Of a DNA stretch of 64,000 nt, positions 2,116-19,511 are shown piece by piece; positions within the stretch are counted from its first letter, which is position 1; each line of letters starts with the position of its first letter. A program made the position numbers and the translations under genes. The notes beneath the pieces were generated by a model that saw only the letters and a program-made list of their open reading frames with translations, did not search any database and had not been told where the DNA came from. Origin of the DNA: Minisyncoccota bacterium (GTDB taxonomy: Bacteria; Patescibacteriota; Minisyncoccia; 2-02-FULL-40-12; GWA2-44-9); the NCBI GenBank assembly GCA_018062285.1, contig JAGOSO010000005.1, forward strand, positions 2,697 to 66,696, written 5' to 3'.

Positions 2116-3114
2116 ATGACCAAGGAGATAGTTTTGTCAGGCATCCGTGCGACGGCACGATTGCACTTCGGTAATTTCTTGGGGGCAGTGAGGAATTTCG
2201 TGGATTTCCAGTCGCAGGGCTATCAGGGTCTGTATTTCATCGCCGATCTTCACACTCTCACAACCCTGAAGGATCCGGAAGAGCTCCGTCGGAATCTCAT
2301 CGAGATCACCAAGGATTACCTCGCAGCTGGACTCGATCCGAACAAGTCGATCATCTACGCTCAGTCGAGTGTTCCGGAAATTTCGGAACTCAGTCTTCTT
2401 CTGAGTATGCTCCAGCCGATGAACGAACTTGAGGGCATCGCAACTCTCAAGGATCTTGTCCGCAACTCCAAGGAGAAGGTTAACCTCGGTATGCTCACGT
2501 ATCCTGTTTTGATGGCGGCTGATATCCTTGGTCCCCAGGCGACACTTGTGCCTGTCGGGGAAGATCAGGAGCCGAACGTCGAGCTGGCACGTGAGCTTGC
2601 TCGACGGTTCAACAACCGGTTTGGTCAAACGTTTGTGGTGCCGGAGATGATGAAAGACATGGTTATGGTTCCAGGCCTCGATGGCCGGAAGATGAGCAAG
2701 TCTGATTCCGACAACACAATCGACATCAATTACACGCGAGATGAAATTTCGAAGCGATATCATGCGCGAGGCGTCACTGATACTCAGAGGTTGAGGGTCT
2801 CCGATCCTGGAGATCCTTACAATCGTTGTCGCTCGGTTTATCCTGTGCACGAAATTGTGACACCATTTGAACGGGAAAAGAGAACCATTGCCAATCTTTG
2901 CCTTGGGGGCAATATCGGGTGCAGGACCTGTAAAGGGATTCTTGTTGACAGTATCGCTGCTGTTCTTGAACCGTTTCAGGCGGCTCGGGCTGATCTGGCT
3001 AGCAAGGATGCGATGGTCCGAGAAATTCTTCATGAGGGTGGTATCAGGGCTCGGGCAATCATTCGGCCCACGCTTGAAGCTGTTCAAGACAAGATGGGTG
3101 TTGTCGTGTACTAA
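2116..3114 (+). CDS. trpS: tryptophan--tRNA ligase (class I aaRS) with C-terminal Cys4 (Fe-S-type) motif
   Basis: HIGH-region LHFGNFLGA and KMSKS (RKMSKSD) are present. Length is 332 aa. The C-terminus has C-x23-C-x6-C-x2-C (NRCRSV...NLCLGGNIGCRTCKG). The SD sequence GAAGGG lies upstream. GC is about 52%. Confidence 0.9.
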   Translation: MTKEIVLSGIRATARLHFGNFLGAVRNFVDFQSQGYQGLYFIADLHTLTTLKDPEELRRNLIEITKDYLAAGLDPNKSIIYAQSSVPEISELSLLLSMLQPMNELEGIATLKDLVRNSKEKVNLGMLTYPVLMAADILGPQATLVPVGEDQEPNVELARELARRFNNRFGQTFVVPEMMKDMVMVPGLDGRKMSKSDSDNTIDINYTRDEISKRYHARGVTDTQRLRVSDPGDPYNRCRSVYPVHEIVTPFEREKRTIANLCLGGNIGCRTCKGILVDSIAAVLEPFQAARADLASKDAMVREILHEGGIRARAIIRPTLEAVQDKMGVVVY

Positions 3115-3199: not shown

Positions 3200-3274
3200 T
3201 GGCGGGCACTGGGAGAGTCGAACTCCCGTATGCGGTTTTGGAGACCGCTGTCCTAGCCACTGAACGAAGTGCCC
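3200..3274 (-). tRNA. trnW: tRNA-Trp (anticodon CCA), CCA end encoded
   Basis: The minus-strand sequence GGGCACT-TC-GTTC-AGTGGCTA-GGAC-A-GCGGT-CTCCAAA-ACCGC-ATAC-GGGAG-TTCGACT-CTCCC-AGTGCCC-G-CCA folds as a cloverleaf. It has a 7-bp acceptor stem, U8, a GG-containing D-loop, a TTCGACT T-loop, and an anticodon loop CU-CCA-AA. Confidence 0.85.
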
Positions 3275-3368: not shown

Positions 3369-4130
3369 TTAAAGCAGCGCGTCTTTGCAGATCTGGTGAC
3401 ACCGAATGGCCCAGGCGAGAATTTCAGTCACGTCTGGCGTTGCGCCAAACATTCTGAATTCAATTGTGCCGTGAGTCGAAATGCGGATGATGTGCCAGCA
3501 GTTCCGTGGTTTCTTCCAGAACCCGTTCTTGTTGGCGTACTTCTCGAAATCGCCCCAGTTCTTGTAGGTGGGTGGCTGGAAATTCGGCGCCATGATCTTG
3601 TAGATCTTGAGGCGTTCGCCGTTGGATTTGTCGCCGGCTGCGCACAGTTCGGGGATGTGTTTGATGGCCGCGTTGTAGGCGCGAATGGCCTGTCTTGGCG
3701 AGCCCATACCGACGTGGACATGTGTGCCAGCGACCCGGCAAGCTGCCCGGATCTTTTCCACTGTCATATCCTTCGTGATTTTCTGGTATCGACCAGTTGG
3801 ATCGGGATAGATGTCGAGTGGCATGTCGAACGGAGCCACTTCTTGGTGGAGCACCTCGAAGCCAAGGCGCACCCGGTCTTTTTCCAACATGTTCCTTAGA
3901 TCGATGAGGGCATCACCGATCATCTGGACTGGATGGGGTTTGGTCCGAGTCTCCAGCTGGCAGGCTGAGAGTTCATATCCGTACAAGCCATTGTTGGGCA
4001 GTTCGGGAATGAACTTCGGAGCGAGTGGGGAGATGATTCCATCTTTGACGAAGAAGCATTCTCTTTCAACGCCAAGATGCAGATGTCTGTCTTTGTTGAA
4101 CTCAAACTTTCTGCGAAAGGCTGCTGACAT
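3369..4130 (-). CDS. carboxylate-amine ligase, glutamate-cysteine ligase family 2 (GCS2/YbdK-like), short form
   Basis: The N-terminal HLHLGVEREC (E-x-E), the central GTHVHVGMG, and the C-terminal GTIEFRMFGATPD all match GCS2/YbdK signature motifs. SD AGGAG lies 7 nt upstream of the ATG. GC is about 53%. Confidence 0.55.
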   Translation of the reverse strand: MSAAFRRKFEFNKDRHLHLGVERECFFVKDGIISPLAPKFIPELPNNGLYGYELSACQLETRTKPHPVQMIGDALIDLRNMLEKDRVRLGFEVLHQEVAPFDMPLDIYPDPTGRYQKITKDMTVEKIRAACRVAGTHVHVGMGSPRQAIRAYNAAIKHIPELCAAGDKSNGERLKIYKIMAPNFQPPTYKNWGDFEKYANKNGFWKKPRNCWHIIRISTHGTIEFRMFGATPDVTEILAWAIRCHQICKDALL

Positions 4131-4321: not shown

Positions 4322-4981
4322 ATGGAATACCCAATCAGAATTAATAAATATGTTAGAGAGCTAGGATTGGCTTCACGACGTGAGGCCGATCTTCTTGTTG
4401 AGGAAGGTAAGGTTTTTATCAATGGCAAAAAAGCAGAGGCAGGGACAATGGTCCAAGAAAGCGACAAAGTCGTGGTAAAAGGTGAACAAAAAAAGTTTGA
4501 ATATTTGGCTTACTATAAACCTCGTGGGTTAGCCACCCAGGACTTAAAAGGCAAAAAGAGCGTCATTACTCTTTGGGAAGAAAGAGGGCTTTATCCTATC
4601 GGAAGATTAGATAAAGAATCTGAAGGGCTTTTGCTTTTAACCAATGATGGCCGTTTTGCTCGTGAAGTTTTATCAAAAGACACTAAATACGAAAAAGAAT
4701 ACGTGGTTGAGGTAAAAGAAAATATTCGAGCCGGTATTCCTGACATTTTTGCATCAGGCATGAAGACAGAAGGTCTAGGTAAGTTGTTGCCAGCCAAAGC
4801 CAAGATTATAAACCCAAATACTCTATCCGTGATTTTGATTGAAGGTAAGCGCCATCAAATCAGAGTCATGCTCAGTGAACTCAAATACACAATCACTTCG
4901 CTCAAGCGAATTAGAATCGGTGATATTAAACTCGGCAGTTTGAGGGCTAGTCAGACTCGGGCAATTACGCCCAAGATCTAG
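4322..4981 (+). CDS. rRNA pseudouridine synthase, RsuA/RluB family (S4 domain + catalytic domain)
   Basis: N-terminal S4 RNA-binding region (IRINKYVRELGLASRREADLLVEEGKVFINGK) and the catalytic motif PIGRLDKESEGLLLLTNDG. Length 219 aa. Confidence 0.8.
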   Translation: MEYPIRINKYVRELGLASRREADLLVEEGKVFINGKKAEAGTMVQESDKVVVKGEQKKFEYLAYYKPRGLATQDLKGKKSVITLWEERGLYPIGRLDKESEGLLLLTNDGRFAREVLSKDTKYEKEYVVEVKENIRAGIPDIFASGMKTEGLGKLLPAKAKIINPNTLSVILIEGKRHQIRVMLSELKYTITSLKRIRIGDIKLGSLRASQTRAITPKI

Positions 4982-5667
4982 TTGTAGCTAGGAGAATCTT
5001 TGTAGACAAACTTCTTGAACCGCGACCAGGCGGTTTTTGGTTTTTTGATTACCTGGATGACTTTGCCGTTTACTAAGTAGTTGTCTAAGTCATCGCGGTG
5101 AATAAAAATTGGAGCAAAGCTAGCACTGGATTCAGAAAGGAGGATAATGCGCTGGTTGTCACTGTCTTTGAAATAGCGTTTGATGTTAGCCATGCCATCA
5201 ATGATAGACAAGACATAATCACCGTTGTGGACACTACTAAAAGTTGGATCGACTAAAACATAATCACCATCCTCAACATTTTCACCGTTGATGTTGGCCT
5301 TGTTCATGGAATGGCCCGAAGCTTTGATGGCGAATATACCTTTTTTCTTGCTTAGGAGTTTTCCCGAGACACGGAGATAACCTTGAGCTTCTTGATCGGC
5401 GTATGCAGTGGCTGGTCCGCAGTTGGCAGTACCAAGGATGGGGATAGCCAATAGGGAATTGCGCTGTAACGCGCCAGGTCTCGTTTTAACCATGACTTTG
5501 GCCAAGCGATCCATTTGGATGAGACCGTTCTTTTCCAGCTGGAGAAGATGATGTTTAATTTTTTGGGGTGATGTTTCATTGATTAGTTTGCCTATTTCCC
5601 TAAGACTCATGTTGGCTAGATCGTTTTCTCCTGCCAGCGCTAATAATTTTTCTTGTAGATCGTGCAT
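4978..5667 (-). CDS. lexA: LexA-family transcriptional repressor (S24 peptidase) with a short C-terminal extension
   Basis: N-terminal wHTH. Ser nucleophile in ASGHSM. Lys in MANIKRY. There are about 20 extra Lys-rich C-terminal residues. It overlaps the rsuA stop by 4 nt. Confidence 0.8.
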   Translation of the reverse strand: MHDLQEKLLALAGENDLANMSLREIGKLINETSPQKIKHHLLQLEKNGLIQMDRLAKVMVKTRPGALQRNSLLAIPILGTANCGPATAYADQEAQGYLRVSGKLLSKKKGIFAIKASGHSMNKANINGENVEDGDYVLVDPTFSSVHNGDYVLSIIDGMANIKRYFKDSDNQRIILLSESSASFAPIFIHRDDLDNYLVNGKVIQVIKKPKTAWSRFKKFVYKDSPSYN

Positions 5668-5715
5668 ATGTTTATTTGAGTTAGGTTATCATGTGTCAAT
5701 TGTAACAAGTAATGT

Positions 5716-5735
5716 TGTCCACAGTCAATTGGACA
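5716..5735. promoter_or_regulatory. palindrome TGTCCA-N8-TGGACA in the lexA / arginine-kinase divergent intergenic region (candidate operator)
   Basis: TGTCCACAGTCAATTGGACA. It sits between two GTCAATTG direct repeats (5695 and 5724). It does not match the classical GAAC-N4-GTTC or CTGT-N8-ACAG boxes, so this is speculative. Confidence 0.2.
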
Positions 5736-5838
5736 CTCTTGACGGCATAAAATGTGAGCACGGCTATTTGAATATTGTTTATATTTGTGTATTATAGCCA
5801 AGCGAATATAACAAAGTCGCCTGAGGAGACACAAAACA

Positions 5839-6867
5839 ATGGACAACACAGAACAACAATCGTTGATGAAAAAGTTCTTGACCCCAGAGGTCAAGGAGAA
5901 GCTGAAGGATGTCGTTTCTCCTTCTGGTTTAGTTTTGGCTGACCTGACTCGCTCTGGTGATGAGAACCCAGACAGCAGTGTCGGTGTCTATTCAGCCGAC
6001 GAGGAGTCCTACTCTTTGTTCGCGCCGTTGTTCGACCCTGTGATCAATGAATACCATGGTCATGGAACGGAAGATCAACACAAGAGAGATCTTGATATTG
6101 CACATCTCGGTGAGATTGGCGATCTTGACCCAACCGGGGAATCGATCGTTTCAACTCGTATCCGTGTCGGGCGCAATCTCAAGGGTTTCCCATTCGCTCC
6201 GGGGATTACCCGTGAACAGCGTTTGGAAGTTGAACGTCGCGTTGTCGATGCTCTTTCGACTCTCACCGGCGATTTGGCGGGTACCTACTATCCGCTCGCT
6301 GGCATGTCCGAAGAAGTTCGTCAAAAGCTACAGGATGATCATTTCTTGTTCAAGCAAGGAGATCGGTTCCTTGCAAGTGCTGGCGCCAATCGTGATTGGC
6401 CAGAAGGTCGTGGAATTTTTCATTCCGCCGACAAGCGTTTCTTGGTCTGGGTGAACGAAGAAGACCAGCTCCGCATCATTTCGATGCAACAGGGTGGCAA
6501 CATCCGTGAGGTCTTCGCTCGTCTCGCCACAGCAATCGAGACTCTCGAGAAGAAGCTCGAGTTCGCTTACTCTGATCACCTCGGGTATCTTTCGAGTTGT
6601 CCGACCAACCTTGGCACTGCCATGCGCGCTAGCGTGCATGTGAAGTTGCCACTCTTGAGTCAGGCGCCTGATTTCAAGGCCATCTGCGCCGAGATCGGTT
6701 TGTCGGTTCGAGGTGTGGATGGAGAACACTCTGAAAGCAAGGGTGGTGTCTATGACATCTCCAACAAGCGTCGTCTTGGCATCTCTGAAGTTCAGGGTGT
6801 GCTGAATGTCGCTAGTGGTGTCTCCAGCTTGATCGAAGACGAAAAAGAACTCGCTTCAAAGCAGTAA
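5839..6867 (+). CDS. ATP:guanido phosphotransferase, eukaryote-type arginine kinase (phosphagen kinase)
   Basis: Active-site CPTNLGT followed by MRASVHVKLP. Also SRIRVGRNLKGFPF, GTYYPLAGMSEEVRQKLQDDHFLFKQGDRFL, and GRGIFHSADKRFLVWVNEEDQLRIISMQQGG. All closely track metazoan/protist arginine kinase blocks rather than McsB. SD GAGGAG. GC is about 55%. Confidence 0.85.
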   Translation: MDNTEQQSLMKKFLTPEVKEKLKDVVSPSGLVLADLTRSGDENPDSSVGVYSADEESYSLFAPLFDPVINEYHGHGTEDQHKRDLDIAHLGEIGDLDPTGESIVSTRIRVGRNLKGFPFAPGITREQRLEVERRVVDALSTLTGDLAGTYYPLAGMSEEVRQKLQDDHFLFKQGDRFLASAGANRDWPEGRGIFHSADKRFLVWVNEEDQLRIISMQQGGNIREVFARLATAIETLEKKLEFAYSDHLGYLSSCPTNLGTAMRASVHVKLPLLSQAPDFKAICAEIGLSVRGVDGEHSESKGGVYDISNKRRLGISEVQGVLNVASGVSSLIEDEKELASKQ

Positions 6868-6884
6868 AAGCCTCAGGGTTTTTT

Positions 6885-6915
6885 GGCCGGGCCTCAGTGC
6901 CCGGCCATTTTAATT
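6885..6915 (+). terminator. terminator after arginine kinase
   Basis: GGCCGGG-CCTCAGTG-CCCGGCC followed by ATTTTAATTT. Confidence 0.5.
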
Positions 6916-6966
6916 TGTTTGACTAGTAGCGTTAAAACGTGTTATTGTATTTTTAAGGAGAATCGA

Positions 6967-7419
6967 ATGAACGAAGTCGAAGAAGGGGATGTGACTGTTG
7001 TTGAAACAAAGGATTGGTTCGGGATGTTGGCGGTAAGTAACATCCTAAAGGTCGCTGATCGTCTCGCAAAGATGCTTGAGGGTCGGAAGTACACCTTCGT
7101 GTCTTTCAATGAATTCAGCCAAGAGCCACCGAAGTTCTTGCGAGGTCAGAGTCTGACACCTGAAACTGCGCCCAATGGACAAGCCGTCCGTGCCGCCATT
7201 GGAGAAGGTCTGTACAACGGTGCTCGTTTGATTGTCTGTGATTCTGCTGGTGGTTGGCAAGTGCCAACCAACATGATGAATGAACTTCAACGTCACGACA
7301 GAAAGGACTCGAAGTTCAACTTTGTTGGAGGCAGGACTTTCGTCGTGTCTTATAAGGCCGGTGCCGGCAACATGTTGATCTGGATGGTCTCCGTCGAACC
7401 CGACGAATTTGAACAGTGA
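6967..7419 (+). CDS. hypothetical protein (150 aa), GC-rich, co-located with arginine kinase
   Basis: Strong SD AAGGAG lies 7 nt upstream of the ATG at 6967. The ORF-track start at 6883 is a longer alternative. No motif recognised. Confidence 0.5.
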   Translation: MNEVEEGDVTVVETKDWFGMLAVSNILKVADRLAKMLEGRKYTFVSFNEFSQEPPKFLRGQSLTPETAPNGQAVRAAIGEGLYNGARLIVCDSAGGWQVPTNMMNELQRHDRKDSKFNFVGGRTFVVSYKAGAGNMLIWMVSVEPDEFEQ

Positions 7420-7440
7420 GCCCGCGACGAGAAAGGCCAA

Positions 7441-7467
7441 GGCCCGCCTCATCCGCGGGCCTTTTTT
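7441..7467 (+). terminator. rho-independent terminator
   Basis: GGCCCGC-CTCATCC-GCGGGCC-TTTTTT. A second hairpin, CAGACC-CGCTTGT-GGTCTG-TTTTGTTTTT, follows at about 7473-7500. Confidence 0.7.
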
Positions 7468-7522
7468 AATTCCAGACCCGCTTGTGGTCTGTTTTGTTTT
7501 TATTTATGATAGATTCACGATT

Positions 7523-8113
7523 ATGAACGATTTACCAAAGGAACAATATAAAGAATTTGCAGAGGAGTATTCAAAGACGATTGAAATCCCAGAAGAAAAA
7601 GGGAAGCAGTTTTTGCTTTGTCCTGTTGGGATAGTTGGAGCCGGCAAAACCACTGTTGTTAAGCCTTTAGCTGAAAAGTTTGGCTTAGTAAGAATCTCAA
7701 GCGATGAAATGAGAAAAATGTTGAAAGAAAAAGGCTTTAGTTACAAAGGAGTTCAAGAAATGGCTTTAATCGTTGTAAGAGACTTTATTATCAAAGGATA
7801 TGGTGTGGCAATTGACGCAGATTGCTCTAAGCCTGAGAGGAGAAAGGAGATCGAAAATTTTTCTGCCAAAACTTCAATTCCGCTTATCTGGATTCACATA
7901 AATCCACCAGAAGAGTTTATTTTAAACAAACTTAGAAACTATAAACATACTTGGTTATTTAAAGATGCCGATGAAGCAATTGGGAATTATGAATTTCGCA
8001 AACCATTACATCAAAATTTAGATTTTAATTTTACTTATACATTTGATACCTCTAAATCAAATCTCTCTGACCAAATCGAGGAAGCCTACCAGATTATTAA
8101 ATCAGCAATATAA
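7523..8113 (+). CDS. P-loop NTPase, AAA_33/zeta-toxin-like small kinase family
   Basis: Walker A GIVGAGKTT. About 196 aa from the ATG at 7523. The ORF-track start at 7409 overlaps the terminator, so I prefer the internal Met. Confidence 0.5.
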   Translation: MNDLPKEQYKEFAEEYSKTIEIPEEKGKQFLLCPVGIVGAGKTTVVKPLAEKFGLVRISSDEMRKMLKEKGFSYKGVQEMALIVVRDFIIKGYGVAIDADCSKPERRKEIENFSAKTSIPLIWIHINPPEEFILNKLRNYKHTWLFKDADEAIGNYEFRKPLHQNLDFNFTYTFDTSKSNLSDQIEEAYQIIKSAI

Positions 8114-8727
8114 TGTGGGCCACTTGTTATCCTAATCATTGTTTTTGCGAAAGTCTGCACGTGGGGGCGGTGTTCCAGCCGGCGAATACGATTTCTTCGC
8201 TGGCTTTTGTTTTGGCGGGGATTTTTGTGGCGTATAAGTATCGAAACTCATGGGGCTATATTTATGCCGTGCTTTTGGGATTGATTGGGCTTGGTTCGGC
8301 CTACTATCACGCCCGATTAGATTTTGTTGGCCAAACTATTGATGTGGCGGGGATGTATTTCTTGGTGACCTTTGTTTTGTTGGCGGTTTTAAAACAAACT
8401 CGAAAATATTTTCTCGGTTATTTTTTGGCCGGGAATGCCGTTTTAATTTCAATTCTGGTTTCAGTGCCGGTTTTGCGCCGATACATTTTTACGGGATTGG
8501 TTTTGGCTTTGATTATTACGCTTTGGAAACAAAACCTTTTCAATAAATATTTCTGGGCTAGTCTTGCGACTCTCGTCATTGCGTTTATAATCTGGAGTTT
8601 GGATATCACGGGCGTTTGGTGTAATCCCAACAGTATCTTGCAAGGGCACGCCATTTGGCACATCCTAGGAGCAATCTCAGCGGTGTTCTTGTTTGAATCA
8701 ATTAGACCAGTGTTGAATAAAAATTAA
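8113..8727 (+). CDS. ceramidase-like integral membrane hydrolase (alkaline ceramidase/CREST superfamily)
   Basis: 7 predicted TM segments. Motifs NTISSLAF, YYHARLD and GHAIWHILGA match ceramidase-family conserved Ser/His/His positions. The start overlaps the upstream stop (TAATG). Confidence 0.5.
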   Translation: MWATCYPNHCFCESLHVGAVFQPANTISSLAFVLAGIFVAYKYRNSWGYIYAVLLGLIGLGSAYYHARLDFVGQTIDVAGMYFLVTFVLLAVLKQTRKYFLGYFLAGNAVLISILVSVPVLRRYIFTGLVLALIITLWKQNLFNKYFWASLATLVIAFIIWSLDITGVWCNPNSILQGHAIWHILGAISAVFLFESIRPVLNKN

Positions 8728-9236
8728 TGGCTTCATATACTTCACTAAAAGTTCAGTTGAGAGAAAGCGAGATGGCCGGTAAGGGCCTTTTTGCGATTGA
8801 GAAAATAAACAAAGATGAGATTGTTGCCGATTACACAAATGGCTTTGGGGAATATGTTGATTTAAAAAGAGCTAACGAGATTTATGATAGTGGTTTGGAT
8901 CACATGATTCAGATTGATGACGATTTGTATTTCGCCGCCACCAATGGCAGTGAGTCAGAAGATTCAGATCATATAAATCATTCTTGTAATTCTAATTGCG
9001 GGATCAAGAGCCCGCTGGGGGTTGTGGCAATGAGAGATATCGAACCAGGCGAAGAAATAACAGTTGATTATGCGATGATTGATTCGTCTGACTATGGCTT
9101 TGATTGTAAGTGTGGGTCCCCAGATTGTCGCGGCAGGGTTACTGGCGATGATTGGAAGATCCCAGAATTGCAAAATAGATATAAAGGATATTTTTCAGAT
9201 TACCTACAAAAGAAGATAGACTTATTAAATAAATGA
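8727..9236 (+). CDS. SET-domain protein (lysine methyltransferase fold) with post-SET Cys cluster
   Basis: NHSCNSNCG (NHSC motif), a GEEITVDY region, and post-SET CKCGSPDCRG. Confidence 0.8.
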   Translation: MASYTSLKVQLRESEMAGKGLFAIEKINKDEIVADYTNGFGEYVDLKRANEIYDSGLDHMIQIDDDLYFAATNGSESEDSDHINHSCNSNCGIKSPLGVVAMRDIEPGEEITVDYAMIDSSDYGFDCKCGSPDCRGRVTGDDWKIPELQNRYKGYFSDYLQKKIDLLNK

Positions 9237-10312
9237 CCATCCTAGATATTCCGCAGATGCGGTTAAAAAATCAGGGGATTAGTGATAGGAGATTTAAGAC
9301 CGTGAAAGAGGTTGTTTCTTGGATGGGGGCGATGCAGGCGCAGGACTATAACGCTTCGTTGTGGGCGATTGGGTTACGCATGGCGGGGAATCCTAAGGTG
9401 GCAGATATAGAAAAGGCAATCAGTAAAGGAGAAATAATTCGGTTGTGGCCGATGCGGGGGACGATTCATTTTGTGGCGGCGGAAGATGCACGCTGGATGC
9501 ATTCTCTTTTAACGCCCCGTTTAAATAATACCTATAACGACAGAAGCGACAGATTGGGAATCACTCCAGAGATTATTAAACAATCCAAAGATCTATTCAC
9601 CAAAGCCTTGAAAGGCAACAAGCACTTAACTCGGGAAGCGCTTTATCAAATTTTAGAAAAAGCCGGCATCAAAACCGCCAACAGTATTGGTTTACATATT
9701 ACATATCGTTTGGCCCACGAAGGTTTAATTGTTTGTGGTCCTCGTGAAGGCAAACAACAAACCCTTGCTTTGTTTGATGAATGGGTGCCCAAAGGAAAAG
9801 AATTTTCTCGTGAAGAAGCCATCAAAGAATTAACTCTGCGGTATTTTACCAGTCATGGCCCTGCTCAAATCAAAGATCTCAACTGGTGGTCTGGTTTACC
9901 AATCAAAGATATTAAACGTGGGATTGAGTTGAATGGAAAGAAATTAACCAAAGAAACAATCGAAGGGAAGGATTATTATTTTTCAGCTTTAGAAATTAGA
10001 CCAATTAGGTCAATTAGAAATTCTCAGTCGGCTTTCTTGTTACCGGCTTTTGATGAATACATAGTGGCTTATCGTGACCGTGACGCAGTCCTTGAATCCG
10101 TACACAAGGAAAAGATAAACCCCGGTGGCAACGGCATGCTTCAGCCCGTGGTGGTTATAAACGGCCAAGTCCTCGGCAACTGGAAAAAAGTAATAAAGAA
10201 GAGTACGGTTGAGGTGGTTACGGTCCCGTTTGTGAGTTTTGGGACAGATGGTAACGTTTCAATCAAGATTGCCAGTGAGCAGTATAATTTTTTTAACAAA
10301 TTGACTAGTTAA
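9233..10312 (+). CDS. winged-helix DNA glycosylase, AlkZ/YcaQ family (HTH_42)
   Basis: N-terminal block LKNQGISDRRF...VVSWMGAMQAQDY carries the Q-x-Q catalytic motif of AlkZ-like crosslink-repair glycosylases. 359 aa. ATGA overlap with the SET gene. Confidence 0.65.
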   Translation: MTILDIPQMRLKNQGISDRRFKTVKEVVSWMGAMQAQDYNASLWAIGLRMAGNPKVADIEKAISKGEIIRLWPMRGTIHFVAAEDARWMHSLLTPRLNNTYNDRSDRLGITPEIIKQSKDLFTKALKGNKHLTREALYQILEKAGIKTANSIGLHITYRLAHEGLIVCGPREGKQQTLALFDEWVPKGKEFSREEAIKELTLRYFTSHGPAQIKDLNWWSGLPIKDIKRGIELNGKKLTKETIEGKDYYFSALEIRPIRSIRNSQSAFLLPAFDEYIVAYRDRDAVLESVHKEKINPGGNGMLQPVVVINGQVLGNWKKVIKKSTVEVVTVPFVSFGTDGNVSIKIASEQYNFFNKLTS

Positions 10313-10371
10313 TTTTTGTTATCACAGTATGGTGCAGATGTTCTGTTATTACTAAAATAATATTTACAAAT

Positions 10372-11421
10372 ATGGATCAAGAGCAAATAAAAAATTTCAT
10401 TGAGGAGTACGGCTCAAAAAGAGAACAATATAAGAATTTCTCAATACGTCTAAAAAATATAATTGAAGATATTCTCAACGTTAAAGGCCTTAGTTATTTG
10501 TCGGTTGAGTGTCGGGCAAAATCATCAGTTAGTCTTGAGAAAAAATTAGAAAAATTATCTTTTGAAAGTTTGGGTGAAGTTCAAGATTTGGCCGGTGTCC
10601 GAATCATAACTTACGTTTATAAGGACATCGAGACAATAGAAAGCGTTATCGCTGAAAATTTTTTAGCAGAACAATTAAGTGTTGAAGATAGGTTGGGGAC
10701 AGACAGAGTCGGCTACAGATCCCATCATTGGCTAATCTCATTACCAGATAATCGTCTAAAATTGCCAGAGTATGAACAGTTTGGTGGCCTCAAGGCAGAG
10801 CTTCAGATTAGTACGGTTCTTCAACATGCATGGGCACAAATTGGGCATAAGCAGGTCTATAAACCAAGTGCTATTTTACCGCGTAAGATTAAAAGGAATT
10901 TCACATTATTGTCCGGTTTATTAGAAATAGCAGACAATGAGTTCAATCGAATATCAAATGAGATACTAGAACATCAACAAGAAGTTGTTAGTGAGACTGA
11001 AAAAGGGAATTTAGAAATACCAATCGATACTGTCTCTTTAAGGCAGTATTTCGATACCAATTTTAAAAGCATTAATAACATGGACCCAAGATTTGGTCCT
11101 CATGATGACATGGCAGAAGATATAATTGAAGAATTGCGAGATCTTGGGATAACAACATTGGCTCAACTCGACAATATTATACCGAAAGATTTTATGCAAA
11201 ACCTAGCGAGTGTAGATATGGGAGAAAAAAATTATTGCGGTTTATCTAGGAATATTATGGTCATTTATAATTACAAAGAATATTTTGAAAAAGCATGGAA
11301 GAATAAGTGGGTATCTGCATCAAAATCAGAAAGTAGCACAGGTGAATTATATAAGATATACGGGATAGATTATGATGAAATAATAAAGACTTATGGCTTG
11401 AGGGTTTCTGTAAAGAAGTAG
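10372..11421 (+). CDS. RelA/SpoT-homolog synthetase-domain protein (small alarmone synthetase-like) with ~180-aa uncharacterised C-terminal extension
   Basis: Synthetase motifs are present: ECRAKSSVSLEKKLEK (RxKxxxSxxxK), DLAGVRII, GYRSHHW, and ELQISTVLQHAWAQIGH. There is no HD hydrolase domain. 349 aa. Confidence 0.75.
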   Translation: MDQEQIKNFIEEYGSKREQYKNFSIRLKNIIEDILNVKGLSYLSVECRAKSSVSLEKKLEKLSFESLGEVQDLAGVRIITYVYKDIETIESVIAENFLAEQLSVEDRLGTDRVGYRSHHWLISLPDNRLKLPEYEQFGGLKAELQISTVLQHAWAQIGHKQVYKPSAILPRKIKRNFTLLSGLLEIADNEFNRISNEILEHQQEVVSETEKGNLEIPIDTVSLRQYFDTNFKSINNMDPRFGPHDDMAEDIIEELRDLGITTLAQLDNIIPKDFMQNLASVDMGEKNYCGLSRNIMVIYNYKEYFEKAWKNKWVSASKSESSTGELYKIYGIDYDEIIKTYGLRVSVKK

Positions 11422-11439
11422 GATAAAAAAGTTATTTAA

Positions 11440-11470
11440 GTAGAAACGTGTCATAGCTCTCTACTTGCTT
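11440..11470 (+). terminator. possible terminator hairpin after the RSH-domain gene
   Basis: AAGTAGA...TCTACTT 7-bp stem with a 15-nt loop, followed by GCTTATTT. Weak. Confidence 0.25.
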
Positions 11471-11539
11471 ATTTAGGGATTAATATAAGTTTAAATATTC
11501 TCTATAAAAACATGACACAACAATCAAAATAATAAAAAC

Positions 11540-12085
11540 ATGTCCATAAAAATAACCTATTTTGTGCACGGGACGACGACGGATAATGAGAAGCATGTTT
11601 CTTCGGGTATGTATGATGTGGAATTGTCGGAGTTGGGGATTAAGCAATCAAAAGAATTAGCCGAGCAAACAAAAGATAAAAAGTTTGATGTTGTCTTTTG
11701 TTCGGATTTGAAACGGGCCGTTGATTCGGCTCATTTAACTTGGGAAGGCGTCTATCCTATCGTTGTTGATGCTCGATTGCGTGAATGTAACTACGGCACA
11801 TACAATGCCCAACTTTCTGAGGTAGTGGAACCAATGCAGGAGAAAATGATTACCGAACGCTTTCCAGAAGGCGAGAGCTATGAAGATGTAAAAGCCCGCA
11901 TTGCTGACTTCTTGGATTTTCTAAAAAAGAACTATGACGGCAAATCAGTTGCCATTGTCGGCCACAAAGCTCCCCAACTAGCCCTCGAAGTATTATTGAA
12001 TGGTAAAACCTGGGACCAAGCCTTTACTGAAGACTGGCGCAAAACCCATGCTTGGAAACCAGGTTGGGAATACGAGGTAAAATAA
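11540..12085 (+). CDS. histidine phosphatase family protein (phosphoglycerate-mutase-like/SixA-like)
   Basis: N-terminal ITYFVHGTTTDNE (RHG-type catalytic His motif). 181 aa. Confidence 0.7.
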   Translation: MSIKITYFVHGTTTDNEKHVSSGMYDVELSELGIKQSKELAEQTKDKKFDVVFCSDLKRAVDSAHLTWEGVYPIVVDARLRECNYGTYNAQLSEVVEPMQEKMITERFPEGESYEDVKARIADFLDFLKKNYDGKSVAIVGHKAPQLALEVLLNGKTWDQAFTEDWRKTHAWKPGWEYEVK

Positions 12086-12504
12086 TGGAAACAAAACTCT
12101 TTGTTGCGACAAAAGCGCTCATAGTAAACAAGCAGGGGAAGGTTTTGATTTTGCGTGAGTCGAATAAATATGTTGATGGAACCAATGTGGCTAAGTTTGA
12201 TTTGCCAGGTGGAAGAATGGAAGTTGGAAGGCCGTTTGATGAATGTTTGGTCCGTGAAATAAAAGAAGAAACTGGTCTGAAGGTTAAAATCGGCCAACCT
12301 TTTTATGTCGGCGAGTGGCGACCAGTTGTTCGAGGAGAACAATGGCAGATTGTGGCAATATTTTTTAAATGCAAAACAACTACAAGCAAAGTTAAGTTAA
12401 GTAAGGACCACGATGCTTTTGAATGGATTAATCCAAAAGATTACAAAAAATCTTCCTTGATTCCTAATTTGCAGAAAGCATTTAAAGTTTATTTGGAAAA
12501 ATAA
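12086..12504 (+). CDS. NUDIX hydrolase
   Basis: Nudix box GGRMEVGRPFDECLVREIKEETGL. SD GAGG lies 8 nt upstream. The ATG overlaps the upstream TAA. Confidence 0.8.
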
Positions 12505-12507
12505 ATT

Positions 12508-12900
12508 ATGAATTATTATTTGAGTTATTTAATGGGTGCAGGCAATATAACCGACGAACAGTTGGCGGGTTTGGGTGTGGAGATAGTCGAGAAGAAGAAA
12601 TTAAAAATACCGGCTGAAAAGTTGCAGGAATATATTGATTTAATAAAAACAGGTCTCAGCCCTGGTTTTTGGAATGAAGTAGTTGGATCCGAAGAAATTA
12701 TCTTTGTTTTTAAATTTAAAGACGAGACAATCAAAGAATTTGAACTATCAATCGATAACGAAGCCGAGATTGCCAAGCTTTGCAGTGAGTTTGCCAATGA
12801 ATCTCCAGACAAAACAAAAAATGTCTACAAATACATTTCTGAAAATAGTTTCTACCATGATTTTATGATTGAACACTATTCAAGTATGATTAATCGATAA
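12508..12900 (+). CDS. hypothetical protein (130 aa)
   Basis: ORF with tight spacing inside the operon. No motif recognised. Confidence 0.4.
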   Translation: MNYYLSYLMGAGNITDEQLAGLGVEIVEKKKLKIPAEKLQEYIDLIKTGLSPGFWNEVVGSEEIIFVFKFKDETIKEFELSIDNEAEIAKLCSEFANESPDKTKNVYKYISENSFYHDFMIEHYSSMINR

Positions 12901-12907
12901 TAAACAT

Positions 12908-13519
12908 ATGGCAGACCAAGCAACAGTCGATGCATACAACAATATAGCCGAGGAATACCATTCTCGAAATTCGGTGACGATGTACACCAAGGAGTATGGG
13001 ATTTTTGAGTCCATGTTTGGTTCAAGCAAGAGTGTTTTGGAAATTGGTTGTGGCACGGGCCGTGATTCAAAAGTGCTTATTGGTCTTGGTTTTGACCACG
13101 TTGGGATAGATGCTTCCGAAGGGATGTTAAAAATTGCACAGGAGCTTGTCCCAGAAGGAAAATTTAAAGTTGGTGATTTCTATAATCTTGAATTCTCAGA
13201 TAATCATTTTGACGGATTCTGGGCCGCTGCAACATTTTTGCATGTTCCTAAGGCCGACATGCCAAAGATTCTAGCTGAAGCCAGAAGAGTTATTAAACCA
13301 AACGGTGTCGGTTTTATTTCCGTGAAACAGAAAAAGGGCATGGATGAGGGTTACATTGAATCCAAAACAACCGGAACCAAGAGGTATTTTGCGTTTTACG
13401 AAAAAGAAGAATTTGCGAACATTCTTAAGGAAAATAATTTTGAGGTGGTTAAAATAAATGAGGATATTGAGCAAGACGGAACCCCCTGGTTTTATTATTT
13501 CGTAAAATCTTTAAAATAA
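12908..13519 (+). CDS. class I SAM-dependent methyltransferase
   Basis: Motif I VLEIGCGTGRD and a post-I acidic residue. 203 aa. Confidence 0.8.
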   Translation: MADQATVDAYNNIAEEYHSRNSVTMYTKEYGIFESMFGSSKSVLEIGCGTGRDSKVLIGLGFDHVGIDASEGMLKIAQELVPEGKFKVGDFYNLEFSDNHFDGFWAAATFLHVPKADMPKILAEARRVIKPNGVGFISVKQKKGMDEGYIESKTTGTKRYFAFYEKEEFANILKENNFEVVKINEDIEQDGTPWFYYFVKSLK

Positions 13520-13523
13520 ATAT

Positions 13524-13934
13524 ATGAGCGATAAAAAAGCTGTTATGTTGCCGGTTGTGGCTGGGGTGGTCATAAAAAAAGATGGCAAGTATCTTTTGGT
13601 CCAAGAAAATAAGAAAACTAATTACGGGTTATATAACTGGCCAGCAGGGAAGGTGGATGAAGGAGAAAGTATTGAAGAAACAGCTATTCGAGAAGCCAAA
13701 GAAGAAGTTGGCGTTGACGTTAAGCTTATTCGAAAGATAGATATTTTTCAGGCCAATATTTCTTTACCAGCCAGACATGCTTTTGAAGCCGAGATTACCA
13801 ACGGCGAACCCCAAGCCCAAGAAGGCCAAGTTCTATCAGTTGGCTGGTTCACCCCAGACGAAATGCGTGCCATGAAAGATAAACTTCGCAGTGAATGGGT
13901 TTTGGAGGCAATGGAAATGATGGAATCTAAATAA
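13524..13934 (+). CDS. NUDIX hydrolase
   Basis: Nudix box GKVDEGESIEETAIREAKEEVGV. Confidence 0.8.
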   Translation: MSDKKAVMLPVVAGVVIKKDGKYLLVQENKKTNYGLYNWPAGKVDEGESIEETAIREAKEEVGVDVKLIRKIDIFQANISLPARHAFEAEITNGEPQAQEGQVLSVGWFTPDEMRAMKDKLRSEWVLEAMEMMESK

Positions 13935-13935
13935 A

Positions 13936-15057
13936 ATGTCTTATTTTACAGGAATTATTTACAGAAATTTAATTAAGCCGGTGTTGTTTTTGTTTCCGGC
14001 GGATAAGATACACGATTTGTTTCTTGAGCAGGGAAGGTTTTTGGGCCGGAGCAATTGGGTGAAGGGGATTTTAAAAAAGATGTGGAGCTACAAGAGCCCA
14101 ATTCTTGAACAGAATTTGGCGGGACTTAATTTTAAGAATCCAATTGGTCTGGCAGCCGGTTTTGATTACGATGCAGATTTGGTAGAAATTTTGCCAAGCG
14201 TTGGATTTGGTTTTAATACTGTTGGGACTTTAACCCATGAACCATACGCGGGTAACCCACTACCAATGCTGGGACGTTTACCAAAATCAAAGTCGTTGCT
14301 GGTTAATAAGGGATTTAAAAACGAAAGCGTGAACAAAGTGTTGGCTAAAGTTAAACCCAATCATACGGGCGCGCCTCGTGGTGTCAGTATTGGTGCAACC
14401 AACAAGCCTTACCCTAATTTTGAGGCCATGGTGGATGATTTGATGACCGGTTTTAAAGAAGCCGACAAATTCAAAACTTTTGATTACTACGAATTGAACA
14501 TTAGTTGCCCTAATTTGTTGAACATCCAGAATTTGGAAGACCGCTTGGATTCTATAACCGGTTTAACTAAAACTTTGACCAGATTGAGCGAGCTTGGCTT
14601 GAGCCGCCCAGTGTTTATTAAAATGCCATTAGAACGAACATTCGAAGATGTAAAAAGTATTGCAGAGACCGCTGCCCCGTTCCCAGTTATCAAAGGATTA
14701 GTTTTTTCTAACCTCGCCAAAGATCGTAGTAATCCTGCTTTTGATTCAGAAGAAATTAAGAATGCCGGCGTTGGTAATTTTAGTGGTAAGCCATTGGAAG
14801 ATAAATCAAATGAATTGTTGGCCTATGCTTATCAGAACTATCGAGAAAGATTTATCTTGATTGGTGTGGGTGGCGTTTTCACCGCCGAGGATGCTTACAA
14901 GAAAATTAAAGCCGGTGCGTCTTTGGCCCAATTGATTACTGGCATTATATTTATGGGTCCCCAGCAAATTGGTGTGATTAACAAGGGTTTAGCTCGATTA
15001 CTAAAGAAAGACGGCTATACAAATATCTCTCAGGCGATAGGGAAGGCTATTCTCTAG
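13936..15057 (+). CDS. pyrD: dihydroorotate dehydrogenase (quinone), class 2
   Basis: GLNFKNPIGLAAGFDYDAD matches the class 2 DHODH N-terminal signature. FMN-binding C-terminal GVGGV. 373 aa. Confidence 0.8.
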   Translation: MSYFTGIIYRNLIKPVLFLFPADKIHDLFLEQGRFLGRSNWVKGILKKMWSYKSPILEQNLAGLNFKNPIGLAAGFDYDADLVEILPSVGFGFNTVGTLTHEPYAGNPLPMLGRLPKSKSLLVNKGFKNESVNKVLAKVKPNHTGAPRGVSIGATNKPYPNFEAMVDDLMTGFKEADKFKTFDYYELNISCPNLLNIQNLEDRLDSITGLTKTLTRLSELGLSRPVFIKMPLERTFEDVKSIAETAAPFPVIKGLVFSNLAKDRSNPAFDSEEIKNAGVGNFSGKPLEDKSNELLAYAYQNYRERFILIGVGGVFTAEDAYKKIKAGASLAQLITGIIFMGPQQIGVINKGLARLLKKDGYTNISQAIGKAIL

Positions 15058-15115
15058 CTGTAACAATTCATGGGTTGCCCCGTCTTAATTATCAAGGTAA
15101 TTAATATACAAAAGT

Positions 15116-15823
15116 ATGAACAAAGAAAATATTTTGACGGTGGTTGCCGTGGTGGCAGTCGCTGCTATTCTCGGATTCTGGTTGTTTTGGAAACCAGACG
15201 ACAAGATAGCCGTATCACCAAGTCCAACTCCTAGTCCAGTTGCAACAGCAACAATGATTCAATACAACCAGAGTGTCTCAGACAAAGACATTAAGGTTTC
15301 CTATTCTTCTTCTGATTTCGGCCTAGCGACTACACCAGCCCAGATCGTGGTTAAGTCTTACATCCCACCTTGCGAAACTGGTTTTGATTATTGTCTCTAT
15401 AGCAACAACGATACCTACAAAGGCACTAATTTTGAGAGTGCTGGGTTACGTATCGCACAACGCAAAGATCTTTCAACAAAGGAACAATGTTTGAATACTT
15501 TACCAACTGGCTACACAAGTCTTACCCCAGTTTCATTTACTAGTGCGAACTATGCCACTAGCGTGTTCTCGCCTTTGGGTGACGCCGCCGCTGGTCATTA
15601 TTCTTCTGGTGCCCAATATCGTCTTTGGTCTGGCAAGTCTTGCTATGAACTTGAAAGTAGAATTGGAGAAACGCAATTTGCCAACTATCCGGCAGGCTCA
15701 ATTAAGCAATTTACCGATGCTGACAGAATCAGTGTGAGAGCTCAGCTTGCCGCCATGCTTAATGCCATAACATTAACCGGTGGAGAAAAAGTTTCCTTCC
15801 CTCAGGCTAAAACAGCGCAGTAG
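15116..15823 (+). CDS. membrane-anchored/secreted hypothetical protein with Pro/Ser/Thr linker
   Basis: N-terminal TM helix (LTVVAVVAVAAILGFWLFW) followed by PSPTPSPVATAT. Confidence 0.45.
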   Translation: MNKENILTVVAVVAVAAILGFWLFWKPDDKIAVSPSPTPSPVATATMIQYNQSVSDKDIKVSYSSSDFGLATTPAQIVVKSYIPPCETGFDYCLYSNNDTYKGTNFESAGLRIAQRKDLSTKEQCLNTLPTGYTSLTPVSFTSANYATSVFSPLGDAAAGHYSSGAQYRLWSGKSCYELESRIGETQFANYPAGSIKQFTDADRISVRAQLAAMLNAITLTGGEKVSFPQAKTAQ

Positions 15824-15861
15824 TTTTAATTAAGATGAGGTCCGTACTCGTCTTTATACAC

Positions 15862-16014
15862 ATGGACGACAGAAACAATGATGGAGGAATAAGCACAATC
15901 TTGATGGTCGTACTCATTTTGATTGTAGTCGGTTTTGGGACTTGGTGGTTTGTGAATAATCGCTCTCAGTCCAATACTGCGGGCGTTAATATCACAATTC
16001 CAACGGGTAATTAA
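15862..16014 (+). CDS. possible 50-aa single-TM small protein (not in the ORF track)
   Basis: ATG at 15862 to TAA at 16012-16014. It encodes MDDRNNDGGISTILMVVLILIVVGFGTWWFVNNRSQSNTAGVNITIPTGN with a clear hydrophobic helix. I prefer it to the antisense 65-aa ORF 15826-16023. No convincing SD. Confidence 0.3.
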   Translation: MDDRNNDGGISTILMVVLILIVVGFGTWWFVNNRSQSNTAGVNITIPTGN

Positions 16015-16102
16015 TAAATACAATCAACCAAAAACCCGTCATTCGTGGCGGGTTTTTGGTTTGGCTAGGCCTTATTTTGAAAAGGGGGTATAATATTGGC
16101 AT

Positions 16103-19506: not shown

Positions 19507-19511
19507 TTCTC

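Follow-up and report, generated by a model that had tools for sequence, protein, structure and literature searches.

Arginine kinase (AK; ATP:L-arginine N-phosphotransferase) closes around its substrates, MgATP and free L-arginine, and passes the γ-phosphate to a guanidinium nitrogen. The reaction is reversible, and phosphoarginine thus acts as a fast ATP buffer. The animal enzymes, such as those from Limulus polyphemus (1M15, 1BG0) and Anthopleura japonica (4RF6), have a two-domain architecture. A homologous catalytic domain, PF00217, occurs in the protein-arginine kinase McsB of Bacillus and Geobacillus (6FH1, 6TV6), which carries a C-terminal domain for dimerisation and phosphoarginine binding and is encoded in a gene neighbourhood with mcsA, clpC, and ctsR. 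McsB is without the N-terminal domain PF02807 (PMC11492440).

According to the title of Fraga et al. 2019 (cited via PMC11492440), bacterial AKs are rare, with a distribution strongly biased towards the proteobacteria. As cited in the same source, those of cluster A include the enzymes from Sulfurovum lithotrophicum, Sulfurovum sp. NBC37-1, Nitratifractor salsuginis, Moritella sp. PE36, and Oceanithermus profundus (Suzuki et al. 2013, via PMC11492440), and those of clusters B and B' the enzymes from Desulfotalea psychrophila, Myxococcus xanthus, and Desulfobacterium (Andrews 2008 and Fraga 2019, via PMC11492440). The latter are genuine bacterial phosphagen kinases; whether they are ancient or arose by horizontal transfer is presented there as a matter of debate (PMC11492440). 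More generally, bacterial AKs have been attributed to horizontal gene transfer, or their origin has been debated (PMC6429109, PMC11492440). No paper joining arginine kinase with the CPR (candidate phyla radiation) was found in literature searches.

Described here is an AK encoded in a 64,000-nucleotide stretch of DNA from a Minisyncoccota bacterium, hereafter referred to as the window. It is probably an AK of the bacterial branch, predicted to be functional, that resides in a CPR chromosome, is old in its subgroup, and was not recently imported from a eukaryote.

Results and Discussion

The features of the locus are as follows.

4978..5667, minus strand: LexA-like repressor (S24 peptidase), 229 aa; PF00717 4.6e-17, PF01726 1.5e-4
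5714..5743, no strand assigned: candidate LexA-type operator, a conserved 30-nt block, GTTGTCCACAGTCAATTGGACACTCTTGAC; from palindrome and conservation
5768..5828, plus strand: AK promoter-like site and leader; from consensus scan and sequence
5839..6867, plus strand: AK, 342 aa, ATG start; PF02807 and PF00217
6884..6907, plus strand: intrinsic-terminator-like hairpin after AK, 9-bp stem with 8 GC pairs, then TTTTAATTTG
6919..6960, plus strand: ORF150 promoter-like site (TTGACT-18-TATTGT, extended TG); consensus matches only, from consensus scan
6967..7419, plus strand: ORF150, lineage-restricted, 150 aa, predicted separate transcription unit; from strain variant and L087 homologue
7439-7463 and 7473-7491, plus strand: two terminator-like hairpins after ORF150; from scan and sequence

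Domain structure and catalytic residues

The 342-residue reading frame named in the preliminary description is present together with the motifs listed for it (SSCPTNLGTAMRASVHVKLP, GTYYPLAGM, DDHFLFKQGDRFL, and GRGIFHSADKRFLVWVNEEDQLRIISMQ), and the encoded protein is identical to GenBank entry MBP9822384.1, which bears the title "arginine kinase [Candidatus Pacebacteria bacterium]". The gene itself was already on record, under a correct name. On the basis of its domains and motifs the protein is predicted to be a true two-domain phosphagen/arginine kinase, in agreement with the earlier assignment. Both Pfam domains are matched, namely the N-terminal α-helical domain PF02807 at residues 5-70 (2.5e-24, 85.9 bits against a cut-off of 25.7) and the C-terminal catalytic domain PF00217 at residues 130-337 (2.6e-76, 256 bits), and the polypeptide chain ends five residues past the latter. 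Animal AK structures match it over the full length with 370-407 bits, the best solved relative being the two-domain AK of Anthopleura (4rf6) at 400-407 bits per domain. The amino acid sequence identity is 51% to the Limulus enzyme (pairwise) and ~58% to either Anthopleura domain.

A comparison with the Limulus AK reveals that 17 of 18 catalytic and substrate residues are identical: D62, S63, V65, G66, Y68, R126, R193, E225, R229, C271, T273, R280, H284, R309, E314, H315, and R330 (Limulus numbering). The one exception is the replacement G64S. In the alignment, C254 and T256 of the reactive-cysteine motif, CPTNLGT, correspond to C271 and T273. The guanidino-specificity loop (D62-S63-G64-V65-G66...Y68 in Limulus), which the preliminary description had singled out for inspection, is of the same length as that in Limulus, and the D62-R193 pair is kept. 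Apart from G64S, the window AK thus has the specificity loop and the transition-state-binding residues of the animal enzymes. Glu225 and Glu314, which we take to be catalytic, and Arg126, 229, 280, 309, and 330, which we take to bind phosphate (roles as in the 1BG0 transition-state structure), are all kept and are invariant in 131 bacterial homologues. Across these sequences, comprising 56 CPR-like and 75 other bacterial AKs, 14 of the 18 positions do not vary at all. Variation is restricted to positions 62, 64, 65, 273, and 284, with positions 62, 273, and 284 deviating in just one to three sequences.

It can be asked whether the AK fold serves another substrate here, either protein arginine, as in McsB, or some other guanidino compound. 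Two differences could be read in this manner: the window AK is ~17 residues shorter at the N-terminus than the arthropod enzymes, and it has a serine at position 64 instead of a glycine. The other bacterial AK reading frames that were extracted are, however, of similar length, mostly 336-350 aa. Position 64 is a serine in 49 of 56 CPR AKs and a glycine in 53 of the 75 other bacterial AKs, but 20 of the latter also carry the serine. Residue 64 presumably touches the substrate via its backbone. The specificity loop is full-length, and E225, C271, and E314 are kept together with the five loop residues listed above. A change of substrate is accordingly considered very unlikely, and the earlier suggestion of a kinase with a new target finds no support in a protein that keeps the residues for binding free arginine.

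The assertion that the protein is not McsB is borne out. All five McsB models of NCBIfam score far under their cut-offs (75-154 bits against 381-679), with the top model at 154 bits against 385 and the Bacillus-type model at 139 against 500. The alignment of McsB structures is limited to residues 97-337 of the AK, with ~88 bits, and McsB does not share the PF02807 domain observed here. In further contrast to McsB, the AK has no McsA or ClpC neighbours: mcsA, clpC, and ctsR are all absent beside it, and the adjoining genes are the lexA-like gene, ORF150, and an AAA_33 kinase. Placement within McsB, which the preliminary description had named as an outcome that would count against it, came out negative.

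Phylogenetic position

All AK trees were constructed by neighbour-joining. In the named tree of 37 taxa, which replaced a tree of 356 domains, the bacterial AK clade has a bootstrap value of 84%, the CPR clade within it 65%, and the subclade of the window AK 92%. The 84% clade groups the AK with those of Campylobacterota, Moritella, and Thermaceae, the ciliate and sponge members of cluster A being unsampled; in the larger tree the window's subclade is recovered at 76-84%, with deep nodes at or below 10%. Every named member of the CPR clade is from the CPR, and the window AK falls outside the eukaryotic groups sampled in the 37-taxon tree. On this evidence the enzyme appears to belong in the bacterial branch, adjoining the AKs of the Sulfurovum/Moritella type, and not among the animal AKs. 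The "animal/protist" placement proposed from motifs is not supported.

With the cluster A enzymes the window AK shares a single domain pair, its length (the Campylobacterota, Moritella, and Thermaceae reading frames are mostly 342-350 aa), 57-64% sequence identity, the 84% clade, and the same catalytic residues. It differs in its host, which belongs to the CPR/Parcubacteria rather than to the proteobacteria or Thermaceae, and in that the CPR AKs form a subclade of their own (65%). The cluster B/B' enzymes are more distant, the sole sample, from Desulfoluna spongiiphila, being 52% identical (Desulfotalea and Myxococcus were left out). Unlike the animal AKs, the window AK is encoded in a bacterial chromosome with bacterial signals.

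No MAG named outside the CPR is among the closest relatives (60-78% identity); the labels of those named are Paceibacterota, Brennerbacteria, Jorgensenbacteria, and 'Saccharibacteria', and most of the others are metagenome sequences. Some 60 distinct clusters, defined at 90% identity, show 62-78% identity to the window AK; the catalytic residues do not vary among them, and their named MAGs bear the labels Paceibacterota, Jorgensenbacteria, and Brennerbacteria. The AKs of Campylobacterota and similar hosts are 57-64% identical, and those of eukaryotes at most 59%. Among phages and plasmids no carrier of a close AK was found, only ~30% McsB-like matches. One AK-like gene, 40% identical, was observed on a plasmid of a ciliate endosymbiont.

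These comparisons bear on the idea that the gene came in recently, on a GC-rich genomic island, from a eukaryotic or proteobacterial donor. The 51-58% identity to animal AKs and the raised GC content of the gene would agree with such an event, and the literature invokes horizontal transfer or a debated origin for bacterial AKs (PMC6429109, PMC11492440). The CPR labels of the nearest named relatives, the lower identities to Campylobacterota and eukaryotes, the 84% bacterial clade, and the lack of close AKs on phages and plasmids all argue against it, as do the divergence of the AK in step with its neighbours (see below) and its base composition.

Base composition

The preliminary description placed the AK and the following reading frame on an island of about 55% GC. 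The measured values are lower, namely 51.4% for the AK, 50.0% for ORF150, and 50.4% for positions 5839-7419. The mean of the window is 41.1%, and the per-gene mean is 41.4% with a standard deviation of 4.6. The AK does lie 9-10 percentage points above its flanks (51% versus ~42%), but it is by no means alone. Equally or more GC-rich are the genes for TrpRS (51.5%), a GCS2-like protein (53.1%), orf200 (50.6%), and a C-methyltransferase (50.3%), and in GC3 the AK ranks fifth of 58 reading frames (z = 1.8). The core gene for TrpRS, with 51.5% GC and a GC3 of 0.565, is virtually the same as the AK with 51.4% and 0.539. The TrpRS gene, the GCS2-like gene, and the ORF150 family are GC-rich also as orthologues in the closest relative, L087, and the AKs of two further relatives, L083 and L084, have GC contents of 52.5% and 49.6%, respectively.

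A GC step in this lineage does not signal foreign DNA, and the island argument fails. No integrase or recombinase was observed among the annotated neighbours of the AK, and no direct repeats were found flanking it. As for insertion at a tRNA site, the only tRNA gene, that for tRNA-Trp at 3200-3274, is 2.5 kb away. The AK did not arrive as a fresh import from a eukaryote on a foreign island, and its recent acquisition from either a eukaryotic or a proteobacterial source is highly improbable.

Transcription signals, lexA, and ORF150

As previously noted, the AK diverges from lexA, which lies on the minus strand. The predicted AK promoter consists of a -35 element, TTGAAT (5768-5773), and a -10 element, TATTAT (5790-5795), and is followed by a leader with the conserved block AGCCAAGCGAAT (5796-5807) and the Shine-Dalgarno sequence GAGGAG (5823-5828). 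Upstream of the AK in a related genome, L082, the -10 region can be aligned, as can the 12-nt leader block, and a promoter function for the site is inferred. The terminator-like hairpin at 6884-6907 suggests that the AK forms a monocistronic unit. The claim that the region is bracketed by terminators therefore holds for the downstream sides of both AK and ORF150, where hairpins are present, but not upstream of the AK, where there is none and the DNA is a divergent promoter region. The AK would be transcribed alone from a promoter diverging from lexA, with transcription stopping at a strong terminator.

The LexA-like protein, in which the match to the LexA DNA-binding domain is weak (PF01726, 1.5e-4), shares 76% identity with the S24 protein adjoining the AK in L082 and 94% with that of L087. 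The 30-nt block between the two genes includes a palindrome, TGTCCA-N8-TGGACA (5716-5735), and overlaps the -35 element of the lexA promoter as predicted. A single occurrence was counted in the 64-kb window, with a chance expectation of 0.1 (one mismatch), and no further copies that might indicate a regulon were found in the window at up to three mismatches. The core of the candidate operator is unchanged in L082 and L087, whereas the flanking intergenic DNA is unconserved. The exact 22-nt core was located in six metagenome contigs, always beside a lexA operon, and the gene beyond the operator varies among lineages. It is a further, speculative possibility that the position beside this candidate LexA-type operator may tie expression of the AK to a DNA-damage/stress response.

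The 150-residue reading frame following the AK exists as described, and has a ribosome-binding site of its own (AAGGAG, 6955-6960). Its strain variant is 98% identical, with six synonymous and three non-synonymous codon changes, and a homologue with 34% identity (E = 3e-22) occupies the same position in L087. Searches with Pfam, NCBIfam, PHROG, and PDB profiles gave no matches; a search of 5.8 billion proteins returned only the 98% strain variant and nothing informative, and the single-sequence AlphaFold model is unusable (pLDDT 42). ORF150 is a real, fast-evolving gene that is predicted to be transcribed separately. It was considered as a partner gene of the AK and rejected, since by tblastn it is carried at none of 84 other AK loci; the one homologue found is that of L087, a genome without the AK at this position.

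Residency and descent

That the contig might be an assembly chimera, or contaminant DNA binned in a CPR MAG, was raised at the outset; the compositional step is all that speaks for it. An independent Logan assembly (L001) is 100% identical to the window across 9.1 kb, the AK join included. A 97% strain variant from a second sample spans the 3' end of the AK, ORF150, the AAA_33 gene, and the ceramidase gene, and the lexA-AK neighbourhood is found in other contigs. The likelihood of such an artefact is negligible. The host is a CPR bacterium: a MAG labelled 'Candidatus Pacebacteria bacterium' encodes a protein with 100% identity to the TrpRS of the window.

The divergent lexA-AK arrangement is found again in L082 and in the P0003-bearing contig. 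Between the window and L082, the identities are 76% for lexA, 76% for the AK, 79% for His_Phos_1, 68.5% for HI0933, and 77% for ABC-F; between the window and L083 they are 74% for the AK, 71% for HI0933, 81% for ABC-F, and 70% for TrpRS. In these two related genomes the AK has diverged in step with lexA, ABC-F, His_Phos_1, and HI0933. The closest relative, L087, whose TrpRS and LexA are 85% and 94% identical, respectively, is syntenic from DivIC to AlkZ. In this single close relative compared, the DNA from the lexA operator to the homologue of ORF150 carries no AK, and consequently both loss of the gene and transfer within the CPR are compatible with the slot. Since no AK with 78%-98% identity to that of the window was found among 5.8 billion proteins, the gene is patchy among near relatives, a pattern that fits lateral transfer within the CPR as well as loss.

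The AK, with or without ORF150, may accordingly have been gained from another CPR bacterium and set beside the lexA promoter, which would make it an islet relative to the nearest genome. The vacant slot in an otherwise syntenic L087 is in keeping with this, as are the near equidistance of the window AK from all known relatives (74-78%), a GC content that departs from the flanks and is near those of the L083 and L084 AKs, and the turnover of genes beyond the lexA operator. Yet a transferred AK is at odds with divergence equal to that of neighbouring genes in the same genome pairs and with an arrangement, AK promoter, and leader held in common with L082. ORF150 lies outside any AK insert, for a homologue of it is found in L087, which is without the AK. 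The GC-rich TrpRS, the high GC conserved in the L087 orthologues, and the lack of an integrase and of flanking direct repeats likewise weigh against an insertion. Transfer within the CPR is possible, if on balance unlikely, and horizontal acquisition as originally proposed is not favoured. Under the preferred reading, that of a resident gene, the AK most likely dates back to the ancestor shared by this Parcubacteria subgroup; the nearest sequenced relative would have lost it from this slot or never have had it there.

Biological implications

The ATP sources encoded in the window, namely phosphoketolase, acetate kinase, and pyruvate kinase, all operate at the substrate level. No genes for arginine transport or catabolism were seen in the window, and CPR cells are thought to be host-dependent for arginine. 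From what is known of the family, the likeliest role of the AK would be to smooth the ATP supply in a fermentative host.

The AK described here is not a new kind of system. The sizeable set of AKs in CPR genomes does modestly widen the known host range, and it points to energy buffering in organisms with very limited ATP-generating capacity. It is a speculative and rather doubtful proposal that many of the fermentation-only, ultra-small CPR/Patescibacteria maintain phosphoarginine buffering as a lineage-wide trait. If true, the age of the CPR AK clade would bear on whether AKs are of bacterial origin or were borrowed from eukaryotes.

Identity of the Gene Product

The open reading frame at 5839-6867 (plus strand) is present, and its 342-residue translation contains every motif quoted in the preliminary description; lexA is positioned divergently on the minus strand (4978-5667), as had been noted.

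Features of the lexA/arginine kinase region, in window coordinates
4978-5667, minus: lexA, an S24 peptidase with a weak LexA DNA-binding match, divergent from the arginine kinase gene
5714-5743: conserved 30-nt element (also 5881-5904 in L082, 14702-14732 in L087, and in L088-L093)
5768-5795, plus: arginine kinase promoter-like site, TTGAAT-16-TATTAT (consensus scan and sequence)
10 nt upstream of the arginine kinase gene, plus: ribosome-binding site GAGGAG, read from the sequence
5839-6867, plus: arginine kinase, ATG start, 342 residues
6884-6907, plus: terminator-like hairpin 3' of the arginine kinase gene, 9 bp with 8 GC, followed by a T-run
6967-7419, plus: ORF150, with its own promoter-like site, AAGGAG ribosome-binding site, and two terminator-like hairpins

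Given their separate promoter-like sites, ribosome-binding sites, and terminator-like hairpins, the arginine kinase gene and ORF150, the 150-residue open reading frame 3' of it, are predicted to be two separate transcription units and not an operon.

The protein carries both phosphagen-kinase domains (Pfam PF02807, 2.5e-24, and PF00217, 2.6e-76). The top matches among solved structures are to each domain of the Anthopleura two-domain arginine kinase (400-407 bits), followed by the crustacean and Limulus enzymes (370-390 bits, full length). Structures of McsB, the bacterial protein-arginine kinase, match only residues 97-337 with ~88 bits, and all five NCBIfam models for McsB score far under cut-off. 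The proposal that the protein is an arginine kinase and not McsB thus holds.

The amino acid sequence identity with Limulus arginine kinase is 51%. The Limulus reference sequence agrees end to end with 1RL9, 1P52, and 1M15, with one residue differing from 1RL9. Of 18 residues checked in Limulus numbering, 17 are the same (D62, S63, V65, G66, Y68, R126, R193, E225, R229, C271, T273, R280, H284, R309, E314, H315, and R330), the sole difference being G64S, and the guanidino-specificity loop has the full arginine kinase length. Across 56 CPR-like (candidate phyla radiation) and 75 other bacterial homologues, 14 of the 18 positions never vary; changes at positions 64 and 65 are conservative, and those at 62, 273, and 284 are confined to one to three sequences. 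By all sequence criteria, the protein is an intact free-arginine kinase. Its earlier identification was correct, and the gene is ordinary in kind and mildly notable for its host range. It is already correctly annotated in GenBank as MBP9822384.1, "MAG: arginine kinase [Candidatus Pacebacteria bacterium]".

Host and Assembly

The tryptophanyl-tRNA synthetase (TrpRS, 2116-3114) is 100% identical to the tryptophan--tRNA ligase of a "Candidatus Pacebacteria bacterium" MAG, encoded on a 70-kb contig, with Parcubacteria-group proteins as the next relatives. Directly past it and convergent lies tRNA-Trp (CCA anticodon, 3200-3274, minus), such that the synthetase adjoins its own tRNA.

Over 9.1 kb spanning lexA, the arginine kinase gene, and ORF150, the window is matched at 100% identity by L001, an independent Logan assembly. 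A second run yielded L086, a 97% variant extending from the 3' end of the arginine kinase gene through a ceramidase gene. Together these assemblies exclude a chimera or contaminant. A 514-bp stretch (8710-9223) is missing from L086, and the SET-domain methyltransferase-like gene located there (8727-9236) thus represents a presence/absence polymorphism among strains. This gene is also missing from L087, the closest syntenic relative.

Relatives and Phylogeny

A protein search revealed ~60 clusters of 331-349 residues with 62-78% identity to the window enzyme and none at 78-98%; a different cluster bears the name "phosphagen kinase [Candidatus Jorgensenbacteria bacterium]". In GTDB, searched with one genome per species, the top five matches are CPR MAGs (Paceibacterota, Brennerbacteria, and one labelled Saccharibacteria) at 60-70%. 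The 75 further matches listed, at 56-63%, are mostly from Campylobacterota, with Moritella PE36, Desulfuromusa, Geobacteraceae, and Thermaceae also represented. Named eukaryotic enzymes are less similar (Percolomonas 59%, Lineus 56%, Eufriesea 54%, Gigantopelta 53%). Two MAGs labelled "Saccharibacteria" (L002) and "Paceibacterota" (L003) share ~91% nucleotide identity over >7 kb around the gene. One of the labels is probably wrong, and the Saccharibacteria attribution is therefore not to be trusted.

The gene had been regarded as eukaryote-type. In a neighbor-joining tree of 37 taxa with 500 bootstraps, however, all sampled bacterial arginine kinases, including that of the window, form one clade (84%). 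Nested within it is a CPR clade (65%), and the window sequence, its closest homologue (P0003), and those of L082, L083, and L084 form a subclade (92%). A tree of 356 domains recovers the same subclade at 76-84%, with deep nodes unresolved. Bacterial arginine kinases have been reported from Desulfotalea, Myxococcus, Moritella, and Sulfurovum, "cluster A" comprises those of Sulfurovum, Nitratifractor, Moritella, and Oceanithermus, and their origin is under debate (PMC6429109, PMC11492440). The window enzyme is a CPR member of this bacterial radiation. A literature search found no paper joining arginine kinase with CPR or Patescibacteria.

A full-length arginine kinase-like gene, 40% identical and annotated "hypothetical protein", is located on plasmid NZ_CP110821.1 (55251-56192) of Candidatus Bandiella woodruffii, an endosymbiont of the ciliate Euplotes. 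It may bear on arginine kinase exchange between ciliates and bacteria.

Base Composition

The GC step is real, though short of the 55% first reported: the GC contents of the arginine kinase gene and ORF150 are 51.4% and 50.0%, respectively, versus a window mean of 41.1%. The core gene for TrpRS is equally rich (GC 51.5%, GC3 0.565, versus GC3 0.539 for arginine kinase), as are a GCS2-like gene, orf200, and a C-methyltransferase gene. In L087 (42% GC), the genes for TrpRS, the GCS2-like protein, and the ORF150 homologue are again GC-rich (GC3 0.64-0.69), whereas their 14 neighbors show GC3 of 0.32-0.45. High GC is thus a heritable trait of particular genes in this lineage.

Regions of elevated GC3
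Window: 2116-3114, 3369-4130, 5839-7419, 22731-23333, 59211-60545
L087: 10001-12008, 14802-15242

Since gene-specific values of 0.54-0.69, versus ~0.40, are kept between orthologues in two genomes of ~41-42% GC, GC steps are unreliable as signs of transfer here. Of 85 rows examined, 80 show a higher GC in the arginine kinase gene than in its flanks, and the gene tracks host GC from 30% to 69%. The most GC3-rich window gene encodes a short (253 residues) GCS2/YbdK-like carboxylate-amine ligase (3369-4130, minus), which lies far under every NCBIfam cut-off and is kept in L087 at 72%.

ORF150 is a real gene: its GC by codon position is coding-like, strains differ by six synonymous and three non-synonymous codon changes, and L087 carries a positional homologue (34% identity, E = 3e-22). 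No match to it emerged among families or solved structures, its predicted structure model is unusable, and it is not coupled to arginine kinase in other genomes.

Gene Order and Horizontal Transfer

Composition, co-divergence, conserved arrangement, and absent mobility marks, four lines in all, speak against recent import, and the horizontally acquired island originally suspected is not sustained. Identities between the window and L082 are 76% for lexA, 76% for arginine kinase, 79% for His_Phos_1, 68.5% for HI0933, and 77% for ABC-F; those with L083 are 74% for arginine kinase, 71% for HI0933, 81% for ABC-F, and 70% for TrpRS. The divergent lexA-arginine kinase order is found again in L082 and in the contig carrying P0003; window and L082 can also be aligned at the arginine kinase -10 box and across a 12-nt leader block. 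No flanking repeats, integrase, or adjacent tRNA were found around the gene, and a phage and plasmid search revealed no close arginine kinase. With the bacterial clade and the equally GC-rich TrpRS gene also opposing it, a direct and recent eukaryotic or proteobacterial source is highly improbable.

One finding runs counter to these: L087 (TrpRS 85%, LexA 94% identical) is syntenic with the window from DivIC to AlkZ, yet in the interval from the candidate lexA operator to the ORF150 homologue it lacks arginine kinase, and an ABC transporter and a GIY-YIG gene take its place. This could reflect loss in L087 or gain in the window line. Acquisition from another CPR bacterium is rather unlikely, for the gene has diverged from L082 and L083 about as its neighbors have and shares its order beside lexA with L082. 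Long residency followed by loss in L087 is the reading we favor as probable.

In L082 and L083 the arginine kinase gene is followed directly by HI0933-like (minus) and ABC-F (plus) genes, which in the window lie ~14.5 kb downstream (21388-25334). Relative to these loci, the intervening block (6868-21387) is inserted or rearranged. A probable cell-envelope glycan locus occupies ~26 kb at 37647-63708; glycosyltransferases (GT1/GT4, GT2, GT8, GT9) dominate it, alongside methyltransferases, an epimerase, a B12-radical SAM enzyme, YdjC, and a YfhO-like membrane protein.

A Candidate LexA Operator

The 30-nt block at 5714-5743, unique in the window, holds the palindrome TGTCCA-N8-TGGACA and overlaps the -35 element of the predicted lexA promoter. 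The surrounding intergenic DNA has diverged in L082 and L087, but both keep the core intact, and six metagenome contigs contain its 22-nt core, each time beside a lexA operon. Indeed, all nine distinct loci carrying the element place it there, with the gene on the far side differing (arginine kinase, the ORF150 family, or others). Most simply, it is a candidate LexA autoregulatory operator of this Parcubacteria lineage. Its center lies ~45 nt upstream of the arginine kinase -35 element, and thus LexA control of that gene is possible.

Proposed Role

The phosphoketolase gene overlaps that for acetate kinase, with pyruvate kinase near (16103-19506, 26518-27945), forming a compact module for substrate-level ATP formation. 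Between this module and the arginine kinase gene are two NUDIX genes and one for a RelA/SpoT-type small alarmone synthetase (10372-11421).

Arginine kinases reversibly transfer the gamma-phosphate of MgATP to the guanidinium group of free L-arginine, and the resulting phosphoarginine serves as a quickly mobilized ATP reserve. With phosphoketolase, acetate kinase, and pyruvate kinase encoded in the window as ATP sources, we infer that the enzyme would buffer ATP when supply fluctuates.
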